The notes below the pieces were generated by a model. It was not told the origin of the DNA, did not search any database, and saw only the letters and a program-made list of their open reading frames with translations. The position numbers and the translations under genes were made by a program. Source: an uncultured Planctomycetia bacterium (GTDB lineage Bacteria; Omnitrophota; Gorgyraeia; JABMRG01). Taken from it: a stretch of DNA of 63,440 nucleotides. The stretch spans positions 1-63,440 of the forward strand of contig CAZWMG010000011.1 of assembly GCA_964634945.1 (NCBI GenBank), in the 5' to 3' direction. Positions 7,007-54,925 of this stretch are shown piece after piece. The first letter of the stretch is position 1; each line of letters begins with the position of its first letter.

Positions 7007-7042
7007 GTGAAAACTCACCTCCTTTCTTTCTTATTTTCTTCT

Positions 7043-7092
7043 TCAAGACCGGTTCTTGAGCACGGGTACTTGTGCTTGAGAACCGGTCTTGA
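7043..7092. repeat. REP-like palindrome, copy 1
   Basis: tcaagaccggttcttgagcac-gggtacttg-tgcttgagaaccggtcttga. The stem is 20 bp with two G.T wobbles. It contains the rayT stop codon. Confidence 0.9.
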
Positions 7093-7624
7093 GCATGATC
7101 TCATAGTATATTCGCTTTCTTTCCAACTGATCCGCTCCTAATGTCAAATAAGTTGGATAAAAATCGATAATTCTATCCTTTGTCCTTTTAAACCGCTCAT
7201 AGCAGCTACTCCATTTATATAATTCCGGGCTCTTTGCTAATCCTGCCCTCACTTGATTCATTTCTGTATATGCCATACAATTAATAAAATCAGTATCACT
7301 TTTTATAATCCTACTTCTATATCTAGACTGCCATATATGGCCAACACAATCATAGCGCCTGTTATGCCACATTGTATAGGATAAGTTCAATGAACGCATT
7401 ATCTTGCAGAGGTCACCTATCAACTGTGGCTCTATCAGCAGGTGTAAGTGATTTGGCATTAATGAATAAGAATATAACTTGAATCCATATTTCTTCTTAT
7501 ATTTCAATAAATTGGCCTTATATTTTGCGTAATCACGCCCAACGTGAAACACCCTAACCTTATTATTCCCACGGCAATACACATGATAAACCGCTTCTTC
7601 TGCTAAGGATCTTGACACTCCCAT
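7043..7624 (-). CDS. rayT: REP-associated tyrosine transposase (RAYT; IS200-like HUH/Y1 family)
   Basis: HUH motif in [14 protein letters not shown] and a catalytic Tyr context [12 protein letters not shown]. Start taken at M46 ([21 protein letters not shown]), which matches the usual short N-terminus before YHV..RGN. The longer ORF to 7759 would translate the upstream palindrome. Confidence 0.8.
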
Positions 7625-7661
7625 CTTTGCCCCCTTTCTGTATAAAGCTTCTTTAAGTTCT

Positions 7662-7711
7662 TCAAGACCGGTTCTTGAGCACGGGTACTTGTGCTTGAGA
7701 ACCGGTCTTGA
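7662..7711. repeat. REP-like palindrome, copy 2
   Basis: Identical to copy 1 and in the same orientation (same wobble positions). Confidence 0.9.
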
Positions 7712-7786
7712 ATGCTTTAAGTGCGATTGAGTGTAGGCCTGAATTAATTTAGCCCTCATATATATAGACGTATGAAATGGGGGTTT

Positions 7787-7989
7787 TCTTTCAGAAAAGT
7801 GAAATAAAAAGGAAGAGCAAGGAATCTCACTAAGGTGATATTCTAAGACAATCGATTGCTTTCAAGAAAAGTAAAAAACAAGGAACCTTACTGAGACGAT
7901 GTTCTAAGACGACCGGTTTCTTACATAAAAGTAAAGCACAAACAAGGAACCTTACTGAGACGATGTTCTAAGACGACCGGTTTCTTACA
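7787..7989. repeat. intergenic tandem repeat, 3 units with a period of about 64 bp
   Basis: Units 2 and 3 share an identical 50-mer (7876-7925 = 7940-7989). Unit 1 (about 7787-7862) is diverged. Each unit ends in ttctaagac(g)accggtttctta, which resembles a REP arm. Confidence 0.85.
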
Positions 7990-19479: not shown

Positions 19480-20415
19480 CTAAAGAAGCCTTTTAGCTAT
19501 TAGAGAATCTTTCATAATCTGAGTACGAAGAATATCCTCATTCTCGAATTTTCTCTCAGGCCTTATCTTCTTTACAAAACTTACCTCTATATCTTTTCCG
19601 TAAAGGTCCTTATTGATTCCGAATATATGAGCCTCTATGCTTGGGTCTTTTTCGTTAAAGGTCGGTCTTGTGCCTATATTTAATACTGACTTATATGTAG
19701 ATTTACCTACTCTGGAATATACAGCATATACGCCGCTTGGCGGTATAGCTTCATGGTGTGGGTCAATATTCGCTGTCTTAAAACCTATGATTCTTCCTCT
19801 CTTCCTGCCATGGATTACTGTACCCAATACTGAAACAGGCCTGACTAGAAGTCTTGAAGCGATGCCTAGCTCGCCCTTCTCTATGAGATGACGTATAACA
19901 CTTGAACTTATCGCAGCTGATTTATAGCTCTTTGATCTTATAATCCTTACCTGAAATCCCAGTTTCTTTGATATGCTTCTTAGGCTCGCGGCATCTTTAA
20001 GGCGCTCTCTTCCAAATGAAAACTTATCTCCGATAACAAGTCTCTTCATATTCAATTTATCCACTAATAAATCTCTAAGGAATGACTCAGCGTCTTTTTC
20101 TATAAACTTTCTATTAAAATCTATAACAACGCATAACTCAACGCCAAGTTCTTCCAGAAGCCTTAGCCGATGCTGGAGCGAACTGAGCATAAGAACTCTG
20201 CCTCTCTGCTTGAGTAGTTTAGCTGGATGAGGGTCAAAGGTAATTACTACGGGCTTAAGATTATAAGCTTTAGCTTCTTTAAGCAGCTCGGTTATAATTT
20301 TCTTATGCCCTATATGAACACCATCAAAGACACCGACAGTTATTACTGATGGCGCAAACTTGCCCTTTAACTTTTTAATACCATATACTGTCTTCATAGA
20401 TTTAGTGCCTCGCAT
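19480..20415 (-). CDS. ribF: bifunctional riboflavin kinase / FMN adenylyltransferase
   Basis: N-terminal GVFDGVHIGH nucleotidyltransferase motif and a C-terminal riboflavin-kinase domain (GFKTANI). Confidence 0.92.
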   Translation of the reverse strand: MRGTKSMKTVYGIKKLKGKFAPSVITVGVFDGVHIGHKKIITELLKEAKAYNLKPVVITFDPHPAKLLKQRGRVLMLSSLQHRLRLLEELGVELCVVIDFNRKFIEKDAESFLRDLLVDKLNMKRLVIGDKFSFGRERLKDAASLRSISKKLGFQVRIIRSKSYKSAAISSSVIRHLIEKGELGIASRLLVRPVSVLGTVIHGRKRGRIIGFKTANIDPHHEAIPPSGVYAVYSRVGKSTYKSVLNIGTRPTFNEKDPSIEAHIFGINKDLYGKDIEVSFVKKIRPERKFENEDILRTQIMKDSLIAKRLL

Positions 20416-20462
20416 AGCTATTCCTGATATTCAATTTTATGTTATAGGTTATCCACTAGGCG

Positions 20463-20542
20463 CCAAAGATATACTTATCAGGGACACTGTCCTGATTAAA
20501 AATTAAACACTGTCCCGAGCAATCTGGTAACTATTTCGGTTT
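20463..20542 (+). repeat. 80-bp direct repeat DR1 flanking structured element A
   Basis: 71 of 80 positions are identical to 20791-20870. Contains the near-perfect palindrome ATCAGGGACACTGTCCTGAT and two ACACTGTCC boxes. Confidence 0.85.
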
Positions 20543-20569
20543 TTCTATGCCGATATAACAAGCTCTTAC

Positions 20570-20747
20570 AGTTGTGCAAAATCTAAGTGGCGATTACAGC
20601 AGGGCCTTTTCATTCCGAGCGGGCAAGGTTCGCCCTGATTAGGTCCTGCGCGAGAGCGAGGAATGAAGTGGAGCAACAATTTCACGCTGGGAAATTTTTG
20701 CATCCCTGCGTAATTGGCGCTTAGATTTTTAAATCACCTCGCACAAA
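20570..20747 (+). repeat. structured G+C-rich intergenic element A (candidate ncRNA or miniature mobile element)
   Basis: Long closing helix (20578-20603 with 20704-20730, extended by ttgtgc/gcacaa). Inner helices are cattcc/ggaatg and AATTTC-ACGCTGG-GAAATT. Shares conserved blocks with 34196-34345 and 33981-34143. Confidence 0.6.
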
Positions 20748-20790
20748 CCATTCTTGATATTCAGCTTCATATTACAAGTTACCAAAAAAA

Positions 20791-20870
20791 CAAAGATATA
20801 CTTATCAGGGGCACTGTCCTGATTGAATGTAAAACACTGTCCCGAACAATTTGGTAACTGTTTCGGTCTT
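20791..20870 (+). repeat. 80-bp direct repeat DR2 flanking structured element A
   Basis: Second copy of DR1. It ends 6 nt from the truB stop codon. Confidence 0.85.
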
Positions 20871-20875
20871 TACCA

Positions 20876-21517
20876 TTAAATGTCCTTAAGCGCGATAGCA
20901 TCTTTTATACAGAACTTACCTGAGCGGATTCTTCTCAACGCCTTCATATGCGCGCCACAGCCAAGCTCTTCACCTATATCATGGCAGAGCGTCCTAATAT
21001 ATGTGCCTTTTGAACATACCACCCTGAATTCCGCTTGATCATCTTTAATACTTATAATCTCAATATCCTTTATCTCTACCTCTACAGGGTCCCTTTCCAC
21101 GACAATGCCTTTTCTGGCAAGCTTGTAGAGCCTCTTTCCGTTGTGATGTTTTGCTGATATCATAGGCGGTATCTGCTGTTGTTTTCCATGAAACGATAAG
21201 ATAGTATCTTCAATGGCGGATTTACCAATAGCCTCTGTACTGTTAGTGCTGATAACTTCGCCTGTCGCGTCCTGCGTATCAGTGACAACACCTAACTTCA
21301 TCAGACAGAGATACTCCTTATCATCCGCACAGAGACTTGCTGATAGCTTAGTAGCCTTATTCATCACAAGAACAAGGACACCTGTTGCCATCGGATCAAG
21401 TGTGCCACAATGGCCTATCTTTTTTATCTTCAGCGTCCTACGCGCAATTGCCACAACATCATGCGATGTCATGCCGGAAGGTTTGTCTATTATTATAATG
21501 TCATTCATATAAGTCAA
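20876..21517 (-). CDS. truB: tRNA pseudouridine(55) synthase TruB (short form, no PUA domain)
   Basis: KPSGMTSHDVV and the catalytic-Asp context GHCGTLDPMATGVLVL. Only 213 aa. Confidence 0.9.
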   Translation of the reverse strand: MTYMNDIIIIDKPSGMTSHDVVAIARRTLKIKKIGHCGTLDPMATGVLVLVMNKATKLSASLCADDKEYLCLMKLGVVTDTQDATGEVISTNSTEAIGKSAIEDTILSFHGKQQQIPPMISAKHHNGKRLYKLARKGIVVERDPVEVEIKDIEIISIKDDQAEFRVVCSKGTYIRTLCHDIGEELGCGAHMKALRRIRSGKFCIKDAIALKDI

Positions 21518-21566
21518 CTCAGATAATATGTTACTAACCTAAAAAACTTTGAGCTACTTGTGATCT

Positions 21567-21660
21567 CTTATGGCTTTGCCTGGAGCAGCACTTTGGATTT
21601 TTTTGCCATGGATTTCAATAGATGGCAAAAATACCAGCGATGTGAAGGCAAGGGCATAAG
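21567..21660. repeat. long imperfect hairpin element C (shares blocks with the element family)
   Basis: cttatggctttgcc...ggcaagggcataag encloses tttttgccat...atggcaaaaa. Its minus-strand reading shares ccttatgccc..C..CGCT with 28380-28412. Confidence 0.5.
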
Positions 21661-21723
21661 GGATATTGCTATCCGCTGTTTTGCTTTTTTGTCTAATATA
21701 TATTTATTAATTAAATGAAATGC

Positions 21724-22701
21724 CTATTTACCATTAACAAGAAGCTTCTTTGCTCTTGATATAACTGCTTTTTCGACTTTGGAAATAGTCCCCTTTAATA
21801 CGCAGCCGCTTGCCGCGGCATGCCCTCCGCCATGAAAATGCCTTGCCAGCTTGTTCACATCTACTGCGCCATTAGAACGTAAGCTTACTTTCACAAGACC
21901 TTTTCGCACCTCACGAAAAGCAAGCGCTATCTTTACCCCTTTTATCATCCTGGGAAAATTAACAAGATCCTGCGTATCTTCAACGCTAACCCTATACTTA
22001 TTAAACATAGCTCTTGAGACATGGACCCATGCTATCTCCCCGCCCTTGGCAGTATTAAGCGTAGAAAGCGCTGAAGCGAGCAAACTCAGGCTTGGGAGTG
22101 TTGTCTGCTCATATATCTTGCGATAAATATCCGCGGCATCTATACCATGGAGCATAAGTTCCGCGATTATTCTGTGTGTCTCTGACGTTGCATTTGAATA
22201 ACGAAACGATCCTGTGTCAGTAAGTATAGCTATATAAATACATAAAGCCGTCCTCTTATTTATAGGAATATCCATCTTCTTGAAGAGATGATAAACCTGC
22301 TCACCGGAACACGACATAGCGGGTTCAACCCAGTTTACTGAACCAAAATATGTATTACTTATATGGTGGTCTATATTTAATATCGGCTTTTCAAGAGAGA
22401 TACCTGACTTAATATCACCTATTCTTTCGATACCTGTACAATCAAGGAGGCAGGCGACATCATAATCTATGCCTTCGATACGTGATCTGAGTTTTATCCC
22501 CGCGCTACCCGGTAAAAATTTATACATAGCGGGGATATCCTCAGGAGGAAAGAGAATAACCTTCTTGCCTGCTTGCTTTAGGAGTTCAGCCATAGCCAAC
22601 ATGCTTCCTATGGCATCTCCCTCCAAATTCTTGTGCGCTGAGATTAAGAACCTTTTACACTTCTTATCCCTTATGCACTTGATTACCTTATTCATCCCCA
22701 T
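21724..22701 (-). CDS. nrnA: DHH/DHHA1 phosphoesterase (NrnA-type oligoribonuclease / pAp phosphatase)
   Basis: DHH motif NIDHHISN and DHHA1 GGGHAAASG. Confidence 0.82.
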   Translation of the reverse strand: MGMNKVIKCIRDKKCKRFLISAHKNLEGDAIGSMLAMAELLKQAGKKVILFPPEDIPAMYKFLPGSAGIKLRSRIEGIDYDVACLLDCTGIERIGDIKSGISLEKPILNIDHHISNTYFGSVNWVEPAMSCSGEQVYHLFKKMDIPINKRTALCIYIAILTDTGSFRYSNATSETHRIIAELMLHGIDAADIYRKIYEQTTLPSLSLLASALSTLNTAKGGEIAWVHVSRAMFNKYRVSVEDTQDLVNFPRMIKGVKIALAFREVRKGLVKVSLRSNGAVDVNKLARHFHGGGHAAASGCVLKGTISKVEKAVISRAKKLLVNGK

Positions 22702-28187: not shown

Positions 28188-28214
28188 CTTTTCATCTATT
28201 TACTTAAAACCTCT

Positions 28215-28264
28215 TCAAGACCGGTTCTTGAGCACGAACACCTGTGCTCAAGAACCGGTCTTGA
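28215..28264. repeat. REP-like palindrome, copy 3
   Basis: tcaagaccggttcttgagcac-gaacacct-gtgctcaagaaccggtcttga. The 20-bp stem is perfect and the loop differs from copies 1 and 2. Confidence 0.9.
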
Positions 28265-32401: not shown

Positions 32402-33610
32402 TTATATATTCTTTAGATAGTGACCAAGTTTATCTCTTTTGGTCTTTAGATATCTCTTGTTTTCCGTTGTTGTATTAATCTCAATCGGCACTCTTTCTAT
32501 GATCCTAAGGCCGTATCCTTCCAGTCCTATAATTTTTTGTGGATTATTTGTAAGCAACCTAATATTAGTTATACCTAGATCCGCTAATATCTGCGCCCCT
32601 ATGCCGTAATCCCTGAGATCTGCATCAAAACCGAGGGCATGATTCGCCTCCACAGTATCAAGGCCATCATCCTGTAATGAATAAGCCTTAACCTTATTAA
32701 CAAGGCCTATACCCCTGCCTTCCTGGCTCATATATAAAAGAACCCCGCAGCCCTGATCGCTTATTTTCTTAAGCGCGTGATGTAACTGGTCTCCGCAATC
32801 ACACCTCTTTGAACCAAATATGTCTCCTGTAAGACATTGAGAATGAACCCTTACAAGAACTCCGCTAATATCATTATGATCTATCTCACCTTTTACCAAA
32901 GCGACATGGTGATAATTATCTATCTTTGACTCATAGACATGTAATGTAAACTCACCAAACTGGGTAGGCAATTTTGTTTGCGCAAGATGCTTTACGAGCT
33001 TATCACACCTACGCCTGAATCCTATAAGTTCCTTTATGGAGCATATCTTTAAGCTATGCTCCTTGGCATATTCGAGTAATTCAGGCATTCGCGCCATTGT
33101 GCCATCATCATTCATTATCTCACATATAACAGCTGCCGGAGAGAGCCCAGCAAGTTTCGCAAAGTCAGTAGATGCCTCTGTGTGGCCAGCTCGTACCAAT
33201 ACGCCGCCTTCTTTTGAGCGTAGAGGAAATATATGCCCTGGACGCGCAAGATCTTCAGGCTTCGCATCCGGCGCTATCATAACCTTTATGGTTCGCGCTC
33301 TATCGTATGCGGATATCCCTGTTGTTATGCCTTCTGCCGCGTCTACCGAGATCGCCCATGCGGTACCATAGGGCGTATTTGAGCTATGTATCATCGGGTG
33401 TAGATCCAGTTTATCCATTAATTCGCCTTCAAGCGAAACGCAGACAAGGCCCCGGCCATATCTTGCCATAAAATTGATATTCTCCGGAGTCGCGAAAGAA
33501 GCGGCTACAACAAGGTCCCCTTCATTTTCACGCGATTCATCATCTACTACTATAACGACTTTGCCTTGCTTAATATCCTCTATTATCTCTGGTATTGTAT
33601 TTAATTTCAC
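32402..33610 (-). CDS. ribBA: bifunctional 3,4-dihydroxy-2-butanone-4-phosphate synthase / GTP cyclohydrolase II
   Basis: DHBP synthase [11 protein letters not shown] and the GCH II Zn site [20 protein letters not shown]. Confidence 0.94.
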
Positions 33611-33630
33611 TTTTATCGCCCCTTAAATAT

Positions 33631-33795
33631 AAAAATCCCGAAGTATAAACTTCGGGATAGAAAATAACAATAAAATATCTCCTCTTCTCTCATCTAGACT
33701 ATACTATTGGCAAAGGAATCACACCTTTTCTGCTCTTATTAGGGAGCTCGTCGGCTTTACGACCAGTAGGGAATCACACCCTATCCCGAAGACTT
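33631..33795 (-). promoter_or_regulatory. FMN riboswitch (RFN element) with terminator expression platform
   Basis: The minus strand reads GUCUUCGGGAUAGGGUGUGAUUCCCUACUGGUCGUAAAGCCGACGAGC...AAAAGGUGUGAUUCCUUUGCCAAUAGUAUAGUCUAGAUGAGAGAAGAGG. This is followed by the hairpin TCCCGAAGTTTATACTTCGGGA and a T-run directly before ribBA. Confidence 0.9.
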
Positions 33796-33799
33796 GATG

Positions 33800-33827
33800 A
33801 GTATACCACAATCCTTAAATCTGTCAA
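33800..33827 (-). promoter_or_regulatory. promoter of the FMN riboswitch / rib operon
   Basis: On the minus strand: TTGACA, 16 bp, then TGg-TATACT (extended -10), a few nt upstream of the riboswitch P1. Confidence 0.65.
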
Positions 33828-33980
33828 GCGAAAACAAAAAAGTTATTTGTAATCTCTCATCCGCCACTCTCCTCTAAGCTAAAAGTTTCGTAGCAACTCT
33901 CTCTTAGCTAGATAATCTAGGCGTGTCTTGCAAGTGCGCCCTTAATCAAGAACTGTTCTGAAAGTAAGCTTTTGAGTAAT

Positions 33981-34143
33981 GCAGCAGAACCTCTTTATTG
34001 CAAGCGAGCCCACCTGCCAGCGAGGCAAGCATGGTTCCCTGCGCTTTATTTTACAATGAAAAACAGCAGGGGGAGCGAGCAACAACGCGGAGTACAATTT
34101 TCTACGCTGGAGGAAATTGTACGTTCCTGCTCCGACTGCTGCT
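33981..34143 (+). repeat. structured element B1 (same family as A)
   Basis: Closed by GCAGCAG/CTGCTGC. Contains CAGCAGGG...GGAGCGAGCAACAA and the hairpin TACAATTTTC-TACGCTGGA-GGAAATTGTA, then TCCTGCTCC. Confidence 0.55.
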
Positions 34144-34195
34144 GAACTATCTCATAGCATCTTAAAGATAAAAAAAACAAGAGTAAAGATTGCCG

Positions 34196-34345
34196 CATGC
34201 TTTGGGTAATTGTAGCAGGGCCTTTTTGTTACGAATGGCACGGTTTTTCCACGCTTCCAAGTTTATATGAATGAGTAACAAAGTGGAGTGAAAAAAACCT
34301 CGCTGTGGTTTTTGAGCGTCCCTACGAAATTAGCCCAAAGTGTAC
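34196..34345 (+). repeat. structured element B2 (closest relative of A)
   Basis: Same block order as A: closing helix, AGCAGGGCCTTTT, helix tgttac/gtaaca, AAGTGGAG, hairpin AAAAACC-TCGCTGT-GGTTTTT, then CCCTACG. Confidence 0.6.
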
Positions 34346-34427
34346 GGGAATTAGCAACTAAATTGCTTCATAATCGATGTGCGCCATAAACCAAAACGAT
34401 TTCAAGGCCCTCTTTAATAATTGCAAC

Positions 34428-34455
34428 TTGACAATAACAGACATCGTTATATAAT
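34428..34455 (+). promoter_or_regulatory. promoter of the GAF-GGDEF gene
   Basis: TTGACA, 16 bp, then TATAAT. The ATG at 34466 lies only 10 nt after the -10 box, so the leader is very short or absent. Confidence 0.55.
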
Positions 34456-34465
34456 AATCCTTACT

Positions 34466-35635
34466 ATGGACAATAAAATAGAACAACTAAAAGCTGAGTT
34501 ACAAAAAACCAAATCCGAGCTTTGGTTCCTGTACGCGATATCTAATGCCATGAGAACCACATTAAACCTCCCTGAGGTGCTCTATGTCATATTAAGCGCT
34601 GTAACATCCCATGAAGGCCTTGGCTTTAATAGGGCGATGCTTTTTTTGGTAAACAAGAGCCGCTCCGCGCTTGAAGGTGTTATGGCCATAGGATCTACTA
34701 ATGCCGAAGACGCATACGCTATATGGAAAAAGATCGAAGAAGAGAAATTAAGCCTTGAAAGAATTGTAGATATGTTTCACCGTATCGATAGCCATGTAGT
34801 AAATGCGCCTTTGAATAATATCGTTAAGAAAATAAGGCTTCCGTTAAACGAGAATAGCGGGATACTCGCTATGTGTACGCTTGAAGGCATGAATTTCGAT
34901 ATCGCATCCAGGGAAACAAGAGACAGTATCTCTGATCCAATTCTTGATAAACTTAATATAGATCTCTTCGCGGCAGTGCCTCTTAAGGGAAAGCATGAAA
35001 TCCAAGGCGTTCTCGTTGTAGATAATATGGTAACAAAAAAACCTATTACCAAAGACGATATCCGCATACTCACTATGTTCGCGAATCAGGCGGGCCTCGC
35101 TATAGAAAATGCCCACCTCTATGAAACTACAAAATTCCAGGCACATACCGATTCCTTAACAAGATTATGGAACCATGGATATTTTCAGAACAGCTTAACC
35201 AAGGCTATAAAAACAGCCAGATTGCAAAAATCTACCGTCTCACTCGCGATGATAGACCTGGATAACTTCAAGATATACAATGATATTCTTGGTCACCAAA
35301 AAGGCGATGCTGCCCTGCGTGAAGTTGCGTCTATCCTAAAAAAAAGTACTCGCAGTCAGGATCTTGTCTGCAGGTATGGCGGCGAGGAATTTGCGGTTAT
35401 AATGCCCGGCATGGGCAAAGATAGCTCTCTTACTGCTGTCGAAAGGCTAAGGCAGGCAATCGAAAAAACTTTTAAGCGCATAGAAAAAAAGCGTTCATTT
35501 CCGCCACTAACAATAAGTTCAGGGCTGGCGTCTTTTCCCAATGATGCGCAAAAAAAAGAAAACCTCATCAAAAAAGCTGACGAAGCCCTCTATAGCGCTA
35601 AACATACCGGAAAAAATAAAGTAAGCTGCTGCTAA
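34466..35635 (+). CDS. GAF-domain diguanylate cyclase (GGDEF)
   Basis: Active-site GGEEF (RYGGEEFAVIM) with an RxxD I-site (RSQD) 5 residues upstream. N-terminal coiled coil plus GAF. Start moved to ATG 34466. Confidence 0.88.
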   Translation: MDNKIEQLKAELQKTKSELWFLYAISNAMRTTLNLPEVLYVILSAVTSHEGLGFNRAMLFLVNKSRSALEGVMAIGSTNAEDAYAIWKKIEEEKLSLERIVDMFHRIDSHVVNAPLNNIVKKIRLPLNENSGILAMCTLEGMNFDIASRETRDSISDPILDKLNIDLFAAVPLKGKHEIQGVLVVDNMVTKKPITKDDIRILTMFANQAGLAIENAHLYETTKFQAHTDSLTRLWNHGYFQNSLTKAIKTARLQKSTVSLAMIDLDNFKIYNDILGHQKGDAALREVASILKKSTRSQDLVCRYGGEEFAVIMPGMGKDSSLTAVERLRQAIEKTFKRIEKKRSFPPLTISSGLASFPNDAQKKENLIKKADEALYSAKHTGKNKVSCC

Positions 35636-54801: not shown

Positions 54802-54876
54802 CTCTTATAAAAAATATTATATCACAAGATTATAATCAAGTCAAGTTTAAGCAGCACATATGTCAAGACGATATGT

Positions 54877-54925
54877 TAAGACCGGTTCTCAAGCACGGGT
54901 ACCCGTGCTTGAGAACCGGTCTTGA
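54877..54925. repeat. REP-like palindrome, copy 4
   Basis: aagaccggttctcaagcacgggta|tacccgtgcttgagaaccggtctt. This is a perfect 46-bp palindrome immediately after the stop of the 2TM gene. Confidence 0.9.

Follow-up and report, generated by a model that had tools for sequence, protein, structure and literature searches.

A family of diverged, structured intergenic repeats in an Orphnella-like lineage of Candidatus Omnitrophota

The window analysed here, a 63,440-nt stretch of contig CAZWMG010000011.1 from an uncultured member of the Omnitrophota, contains three non-coding elements, A, B1 and B2, that belong to one previously undescribed family of approximately 150 nt, named E1. Members of the family have diverged deeply with base pairing preserved, both the fold and the strand on which it forms are under selection, and many intergenic sites acquired copies once the lineages had split. 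Taken as a whole, E1 is perhaps best regarded as a non-autonomous, structured interspersed repeat, akin to REPINs (paired repetitive extragenic palindromes, REPs) and bacterial interspersed mosaic elements (BIMEs), with selection for folding of a single strand, and this interpretation is given about an even chance of being correct. An initial annotation of the window had opposed a selected structure to a repeat, which proves to be a false choice; E1 is both a dispersed repeat of the insertion type and a structure maintained by selection. In kind, the family belongs with the structured interspersed repeats of bacteria, and it is set apart by its branched fold, its conserved core with free arms, and its deep divergence with pairing retained. 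A full-text literature search found nothing relevant on non-coding repeats of the Omnitrophota, an uncultured phylum.

Members of the E1 family

Elements A, B1 and B2 match in sequence the description given in the initial annotation, which had placed them in one family. A and B2 align from end to end, in agreement with its proposal that they are collinear, and a 13-mer, AGCAGGGCCTTTT, occurs free of mismatches only at 20598 (A) and 34214 (B2). For B1, a covariance model (model R1) was built from A, B2 and two copies on contig L013, leaving B1 unseen in training; the model detected B1 with E = 2e-10, matched it at 33981-34132 with filters off and, again with filters off, recovered exactly three copies in the whole window. 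B1 and B2 are thus both members, as had been claimed, and B1 is more than a P3 hairpin, being complete and having a P2 tip that is enlarged. Six more copies lie on contigs of related Candidatus Omnitrophota, two of them on the metagenome contig L013 and four on contigs fetched by way of homologues of ribF, lpdA and the GGDEF protein, bringing the known total to nine copies in three genomes. These are listed below; P1 is the closing helix of the element, and P2 and P3 are its internal hairpins.

20578-20729, plus strand: E1 copy A; closing helix AAAATCTAAG.../...CTTAGATTTT, three-way junction, P3 loop ACGCTGG; 178.6 bits with model R1
33981-34146, plus strand: E1 copy B1; P2 tip approximately 55 nt longer, P3 of 10 bp with loop TACGCTGGA; 43.6 bits with model R1, E 2.4e-10
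34193-34347, plus strand: E1 copy B2; 134.6 bits with model R1; divergent subfamily, nearest to C2 (L044) at 69% identity
L044:4500-4652, minus strand: E1 copy C1; covariance-model match in the mdh-lpdA spacer
L044:322-478, plus strand: E1 copy C2; covariance-model match
L044:1-72, minus strand: E1 copy C3, truncated; covariance-model match
L049:12006-12169, minus strand: E1 copy F1; 118 bits with model R2, built without F1
Contig L013: E1 copies L13a and L13b, the two copies at the one true locus from a metagenome scan
34160-34172: CATCTTAAAGAT(A), containing the palindrome ATCTTAAAGAT, common to the upstream flanks of B2 and C2

Contig L044 is taken as probably deriving from the window's own species, because the sequencing runs that yielded it also yielded contigs identical to the window, and L049 represents a more distant relative. 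The 12-13 nt in the last line of the list are found 20-25 nt upstream of the closing helix in both B2 and C2 (L044), and the B2/C2 subfamily appears to reach 5' beyond the hairpin. Homologues of this organism's proteins carry the names Omnitrophota or Omnitrophica, the closest named one being 'Candidatus Orphnella occulta', whose ribF is 89% identical. E1 occurs in an Orphnella-like lineage of Candidatus Omnitrophota. Approximately three copies per 63 kb would extrapolate to the order of 100 per genome.

Predicted fold and covariation

When applied to four copies, RNAalifold predicted a three-way junction with 46 pairs. The long closing helix, P1, varies freely in its outer sequence and has GCAGGG:CCCUGC in its inner part. 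Two of the conserved blocks described in the initial annotation, AGCAGGG and CCCTGCG, are not single-stranded as had been supposed; they pair mutually and so lengthen the closing helix. P2 is built on a base of CC:GG and UUU:AAG, followed by a variable 6-bp helix and then by an invariant tandem G.A, in which 5'-GA-3' faces 5'-GA-3'. The two pairs that enclose it alternate between GC/GC and AU/AU. Beyond the tandem G.A, there is a conserved bulge, GGCAnGGUU, and then a tip that is variable in both length and sequence. Finally, P3 is a hairpin of 7-11 bp with the loop nCGCUGG. The junction sequences of F1 are altered (GGAGC:GCUCC and CAGG:CCUG), and the three-helix topology, as read by eye, is retained.

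In an alignment of eight copies, 92.5% of 362 cells hold standard pairs, compared with 41-49% when partners are slid by 1-3 columns. Both sides have changed in 30 of the 46 pairs, and the observed covariation score was reached by none of 500 shuffles; an analysis of seven copies likewise supports the pairing. The eight-copy alignment was fitted to the covariance model, which favours the structure, and an independent MAFFT/RNAalifold run on four copies returned an identical one. Copies assigned to the same genome (A, B1, B2, C1 and C2) share a pairwise identity of only 45-69%, and pairing has therefore been maintained across deep divergence. The co-varying stems of the initial annotation, including the compensatory differences in P2 and P3 between A and B2, continue to co-vary as more, and more divergent, copies are added. 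It could be supposed that E1 copies are neutral, decaying duplicates in which covariation arose by chance or from palindromic symmetry, and some copies are clearly decaying. Pairing of this extent among copies of 50-69% identity, set beside the slid and shuffled controls, leaves this idea almost no probability, as do the covariation of the internal hairpins P2 and P3, beyond that of the terminal arms, and the asymmetry between strands.

Folding strand and orientation

The E1 fold is more stable on the same strand in all eight full copies, by 0.1-15.5 kcal/mol, with copy A having a minimum free energy of -65.8 kcal/mol versus -50.9 kcal/mol on the other strand. For A, B1 and B2, the favoured strand is the plus strand, as the initial annotation had argued from G.T wobbles, and that argument extends to the family, in which G.U cells number 23 versus seven A.C cells across the pairs. 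The folding strand of E1 is itself G-rich (GC skew +0.12 to +0.22). The plus strand of the window, on which its three copies fold, is C-rich throughout, with a third-codon-position skew of -0.13 for plus-strand genes and -0.21 for minus-strand genes, and is therefore lagging-strand sequence by the usual rule, which is to say the leading-strand template. All three window copies have the same orientation relative to this replication-associated skew, and the folding strand runs against the direction of the neighbouring genes in eight of the nine copies.

Strand-specific folding and such orientation biases are also consistent with a single-stranded DNA (ssDNA) signal for replication or priming, similar to sso or ssi sites. 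On the opposite strand, the P3 loop reads CCAGCG(T/A), presumably a likeness to the CS-6 motif of ssoA origins. This resemblance, however, covers just 5 nt on the worse-folding strand, and a BLASTN search with A found no similar DNA in 72,556 plasmids or 50,697 phages. The patchy, lineage-specific presence of E1 is likewise unlike that of a core replication signal, and a role of this type is decidedly unlikely.

Insertion history

E1 is an insertion-type element with no conserved locus, and every copy that could be checked is missing at the matching site in a related genome. For example, truB and ribF overlap (...ACATTTCATGAAGAC...) in relatives L023, L033 and L043, and the window has 476 extra nucleotides exactly there, arranged as follows.

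20398-20873: insert of 476 nt that separates the truB stop from the ribF start, consisting of repeat R1, copy A and repeat R2
20420-20544: direct repeat R1, approximately 125 nt, on the ribF side of A, supplying a new ribF ribosome-binding region
20749-20871: direct repeat R2, abutting the truB stop codon, 80% identical to repeat R1

The insertion uncoupled the two genes (20874-20878, 20395-20397), such that the truB stop, TAA, now lies one codon earlier and the new upstream region of ribF, including a GAGG, derives from repeat R1. This is the sole clean junction, and its insert is composite, with an ambiguous ATG on both sides. The two repeats are spaced 327 nt from start to start, and the layout resembles approximately 1.5 tandem units of a 327-nt unit; the R repeat also seems to extend into the first 7 nt or so of A's arm (AAATCTA). 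When tested as a further repeat family, the R repeat had no other copy in approximately 460 kb of fetched DNA.

Other sites reveal the same pattern. The ribBA-GGDEF spacer of L019, a relative of 74% identity, is 474 nt long and lacks E1, which contradicts a reading of B1 and B2 as a non-coding gene that is conserved, or as an element with a regulatory role in the rib/GGDEF spacer; closer relatives retain the GGDEF promoter, and their upstream DNA is unrelated to that of the window. Similarly, the mdh-lpdA spacer carries C1 in the window's species and is 63 nt long and empty in L049. In L013, the same spacer contains a truncated orthologue of C1 (arm 91% and flank 96% identical), adjoined by an A-type copy and by E2, a second repeat described below. 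Since this sole available orthologous pair includes a truncated copy, it represents decay rather than retention, and some E1 copies do decay.

Companion repeats and a RAYT-like gene

The window also contains a gene resembling those of REP-associated tyrosine transposases (RAYTs) and two further types of repeat, as listed.

7043-7759, minus strand: RAYT-like Y1 transposase gene between recA and cinA (Pfam Y1_Tnp, 3.6e-13)
33946-33961: degenerate half-REP palindrome TCAAGAACTGTTCTGA adjoining B1, resembling the D1 arms TCAAGACCGGTTCTTGA / TTGAGAACCGGTCTTGA
21563-21663: E2, another structured hairpin repeat, found in the company of E1; inverted relative to the copies in relatives

Against NCBIfam REP_Tyr_transpos, the RAYT-like gene scores 63.7 bits, under the cut-off of 80. 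It is flanked by two 100% identical REP-type palindromes of 54 nt (family D1; 7039-7092 and 7658-7711), with further D1 palindromes at 28211-28264, 54872-54925 and L044:6800-6833, and contigs L044-L046 each carry one at an end. Together, the gene and the D1 palindromes look like a REPIN-RAYT system in the Omnitrophota. The palindrome at 33946-33961 reported in the initial annotation is real, and its resemblance is to the arms of this D1 family. Three tandem repeats of approximately 62 nt, two of them identical, also lie at 7815-7989, between the RAYT-like gene and cinA.

E2 is a rod-like hairpin of approximately 95 nt, bounded by 14-nt inverted repeats (CTTATGCCCnTGCC / GGCAnGGGCATAAG), in which eight of 34 pairs are compensatory. 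In addition to the window copy, it is present at L023:9201-9295, in L033 and L043, at L013:293-385 (next to L13a) and at approximately L044:103-233 (between C3 and C2), and it lies between nrnA (DHH) and truB in all relatives. The interior of E2 is precisely inverted in the window relative to its relatives, which fits either an invertible segment or re-insertion.

E1 copies occur in pairs, namely B1 with B2, and C3 with C2 on either side of an E2. At L013:2486-2570, just after lplA, a mosaic joins 22 of 22 nt of the C1 3' arm, 21 nt of the E2 right arm and half a REP. This clustering of E1 with itself, with REPs and with E2 amounts to BIME-like mosaics of mobile intergenic repeats. Such repeats remodel operons, as is evident from the insertion that split the overlapping truB-ribF pair. 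Contigs L014, L016-L018 and L044-L048 end within or beside E1, E2 or REP copies, and these repeats probably fragment the assemblies of the genomes that carry them.

Database searches and rejected classes

The initial annotation could assign E1 to no known RNA class, and Rfam 15 gave no match for it either, even at E up to 10. At the gathering threshold, the whole window matched only FMN and tRNA; permissive searches of 33600-34500 and 20380-21730 (E up to 10 and 5, respectively) returned only chance-level matches, elsewhere than E1, and nothing resembling a tRNA or tmRNA gene was detected there by ARAGORN at E1. A scan of genome contigs with a pattern derived from A and B2 produced four matches, all of them coding or due to chance and failing the model, the pattern being too narrow for the C1, C2 and F1 types and saying little about true spread. 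Scans of viral contigs likewise yielded only chance matches, all of which fail the covariance model.

Several specific candidates were rejected. A 16-codon open reading frame (ORF) in A (MKWSNNFTLGNFCIPA, behind GAGG) is not regarded as a peptide gene, given that a start codon is missing at that place in B2 and the reading frame is not maintained. Motifs such as CUGAU and AAGUGGAG brought ribozymes to mind, among them hammerhead and twister, which have no Rfam support. A retron msr-msd was set aside in view of the lack of a reverse transcriptase gene among the E1 flanking genes; more generally, no recombinase, reverse transcriptase or nuclease gene is adjacent to any of the nine copies.

Relationship to known systems and proposed mechanism

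E1 resembles REPINs in being extragenic, non-coding and of approximately 100-150 nt, with a long hairpin in ssDNA or mRNA, in its clustering and its mosaics with other repeats, and in the presence of a RAYT with flanking REP palindromes in the same window. Compensatory changes in such hairpins are common and documented in REPINs (PMC3116915), and E1 likewise is a clustered extragenic hairpin that has been kept by compensatory changes. The two differ in that E1 has a conserved core and free arms, whereas a REPIN has conserved arms and a free spacer, and in that E1 is branched. A definition of REPINs by inverted REP copies does not fit, as the arms of E1 are no REP copies, vary by subfamily and are unrelated to D1; one by flanking of the RAYT fails as well, the gene being flanked by D1 palindromes and no E1.

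ERIC/IRU, Correia elements, BOX and the bcr1 repeats of Bacillus cereus are intergenic repeats of approximately 100-160 bp that are RNA-foldable and insertion-polymorphic and that, like E1, have variable internal insertions at fixed points. Terminal inverted repeats are conserved in these families, usually together with a target-site duplication. E1, in contrast, has neither conserved repeats of this kind nor a clear target-site duplication, and it has diverged more deeply with pairing kept. Assignment to the miniature inverted-repeat transposable elements (MITEs) by conserved terminal inverted repeats was rejected for the same reason, the closing-helix sequences differing among the A-type, B2/C2-type, C1 and F1 copies. 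Integron attC sites also act as strand-specifically folded ssDNA in which structure is kept over sequence, are similar in size range and possibly have branched tips. An attC identity was nevertheless rejected; the R''/R' core sites (RYYYAAC / GTTRRRY) are absent by eye from the base of the E1 helix, no cassette array or integron integrase lies beside E1, and E1 has conserved internal blocks. Finally, Y RNA/YrlA and 6S RNA similarly have 5' and 3' ends joined by a long closing helix and conserved internal loops that possibly bind protein, and E1 differs from them in its lack of an Rfam match and in its many diverged, decayed and promoterless copies. No gene for Ro/Rsr or another RNA partner was seen in Pfam scans, which covered part of the window's genes.

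Under the interpretation of E1 as a REPIN/BIME-like repeat, selection would act mainly at the level of the element, with only fold-competent copies being propagated, an argument made earlier for REPINs. A protein provided in trans would recognise the folded strand, most likely ssDNA, by its conserved junction and loops; the tandem G.A, bulge, junction and P3 loop would form the recognition surface, and the arms would need only to pair. A HUH/Y1 transposase like the window's RAYT would be the most economical candidate for this protein, since the window itself carries a system of this type. If E1 does fold as ssDNA, mobilisation of the Y1/HUH type would extend beyond simple REP hairpins.

A number of observations weigh against this interpretation. 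No link between E1 and any transposase emerged, the RAYT being flanked by D1 instead. REPIN and MITE families usually consist of many near-identical copies, and E1 copies are much more diverged from one another than typical REPIN populations; old, diverged copies fit a function at the level of the host equally. There are no conserved termini, clear target-site duplications or common target motifs among E1 copies, and the sole clean junction surrounds the composite R-A-R insert and no bare E1. The folding strand lies on the window's lagging-strand sequence, the leading-strand template, which is the opposite of the preference of IS200/IS605 elements that Ton-Hoang et al. reportedly described in 2010. 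RNAs that bind proteins typically show this combination of a tandem G.A with a junction and loops that are conserved, and the sample comprises only nine copies from three genomes.

Some of these points lead to the alternative that E1 copies are genes, or processed segments, for paralogous small structured RNAs, in which the paired ends protect the molecule, the bulge, junction and P3 loop bind protein, and spread by insertion is secondary. An invariant tandem G.A, GGCAnGGUU and nCGCUGG in a three-way junction whose helices all co-vary would suit such RNAs, as would retention of structure at approximately 50% identity, the G.U bias with one-strand stability, and a folding strand that is richer in G than its local background, as a gene on the opposite strand would be. 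However, scanning and inspection by eye revealed neither a sigma-70-like promoter nor an intrinsic terminator beside any copy, even though the known promoters of this genome are near-perfect. The approximately 100 copies extrapolated per genome would be high for an RNA gene family, decayed copies and fragments exist, the syntenic sites of relatives lack copies, and orientation against both replication and neighbouring genes is unusual for expressed stable RNAs. Small RNA genes are therefore seen as a serious but minority possibility. More speculatively, and doubtful as it stands, E1 may be a new class of structured non-coding RNA of approximately 150 nt that is carried by, or itself constitutes, a mobile element of the Omnitrophota, its invariant parts binding a protein partner, possibly a transposition or defence enzyme as later proved true of HEARO/omega RNAs, and its diverged copies being functional paralogues rather than junk.

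A further alternative makes E1 what remains of an RNA-guided mobile element, namely the RNA module, whether a bridge RNA as in IS110 or an omega RNA as in IS200/IS605, with the variable parts of E1 as guides. A conserved scaffold with variable segments (the arms and P2 tip) on an insertion-type element would agree with this origin, as would the member of the Y1-transposase family in the window. It is unlikely all the same: no recombinase, TnpB or IscB gene lies beside the nine copies, whose neighbours are housekeeping genes; the core is no more complementary to its flanks than shuffled sequences are, on which ground a guide RNA was rejected; and the variable arms pair mutually instead of staying free. 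Whatever its origin, the covariation of E1 is unusually clean for a dispersed repeat, with pairing kept at approximately 50% identity, and the invariance of its junction and loops suggests a specific protein as its partner. Structured motifs of mobile elements have gained importance in the past, those of HEARO and IS605 having later been recognised as guide RNAs.

Neighbouring genes and promoters

The genes flanking E1 copies are truB, ribF, ribBA, GGDEF, mdh, lpdA, lplA and btuB. The spacer that holds B1 and B2 (33831-34427) contains no ORF of at least 60 aa, as the initial annotation stated, the longest being 57 aa, and it is bounded by the following features.

33678-33797, minus strand: FMN riboswitch of ribBA (RF00050, 98.3 bits), part of the context outside E1
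33827-33800, minus strand: near-consensus promoter on the riboflavin side, from a promoter scan
34428-34455, plus strand: GAF-GGDEF promoter, 3' of B2 (TTGACA-16-TATAAT, 12/12)

B2 lies upstream of the GAF-GGDEF promoter and therefore outside the GGDEF mRNA, and this promoter is also kept in relatives without B1 and B2. The GGDEF start codon is at 34466. The -10 box ends 10 nt before the ATG (window 34428-34468), because of which the GAF-GGDEF mRNA is probably leaderless or nearly so.

Several copies adjoin flavin-related genes, namely ribF, ribBA with its FMN riboswitch, and lpdA (20578-20729, 33981-34347, L044:4500-4652 and L013:1-148). Proximity to flavin and cofactor genes or to riboswitches would be in keeping with E1 as a cis-regulatory RNA, that is, a riboswitch or leader of ribBA, ribF, lpdA and btuB. 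Nevertheless, in every transcribed spacer (A, C1, F1 and L13b) the strand of E1 that folds is antisense to the adjoining genes, B2 and C2 lie upstream of promoters, and relatives have the same genes without E1; a riboswitch or 5' leader was rejected on these grounds, and cis-regulation is very improbable. Because of the antisense orientation and the absence from relatives, proximity to flavin genes is probably coincidence.

One further arrangement was observed at L013:10362-10972, where a Cobalamin riboswitch (103 bits) and a terminator-like hairpin are followed, in order, by an antisense E1, an AdoCbl-II riboswitch (36.8 bits) and a TonB-dependent receptor gene, forming an unusual tandem of two B12 riboswitch classes separated by E1.

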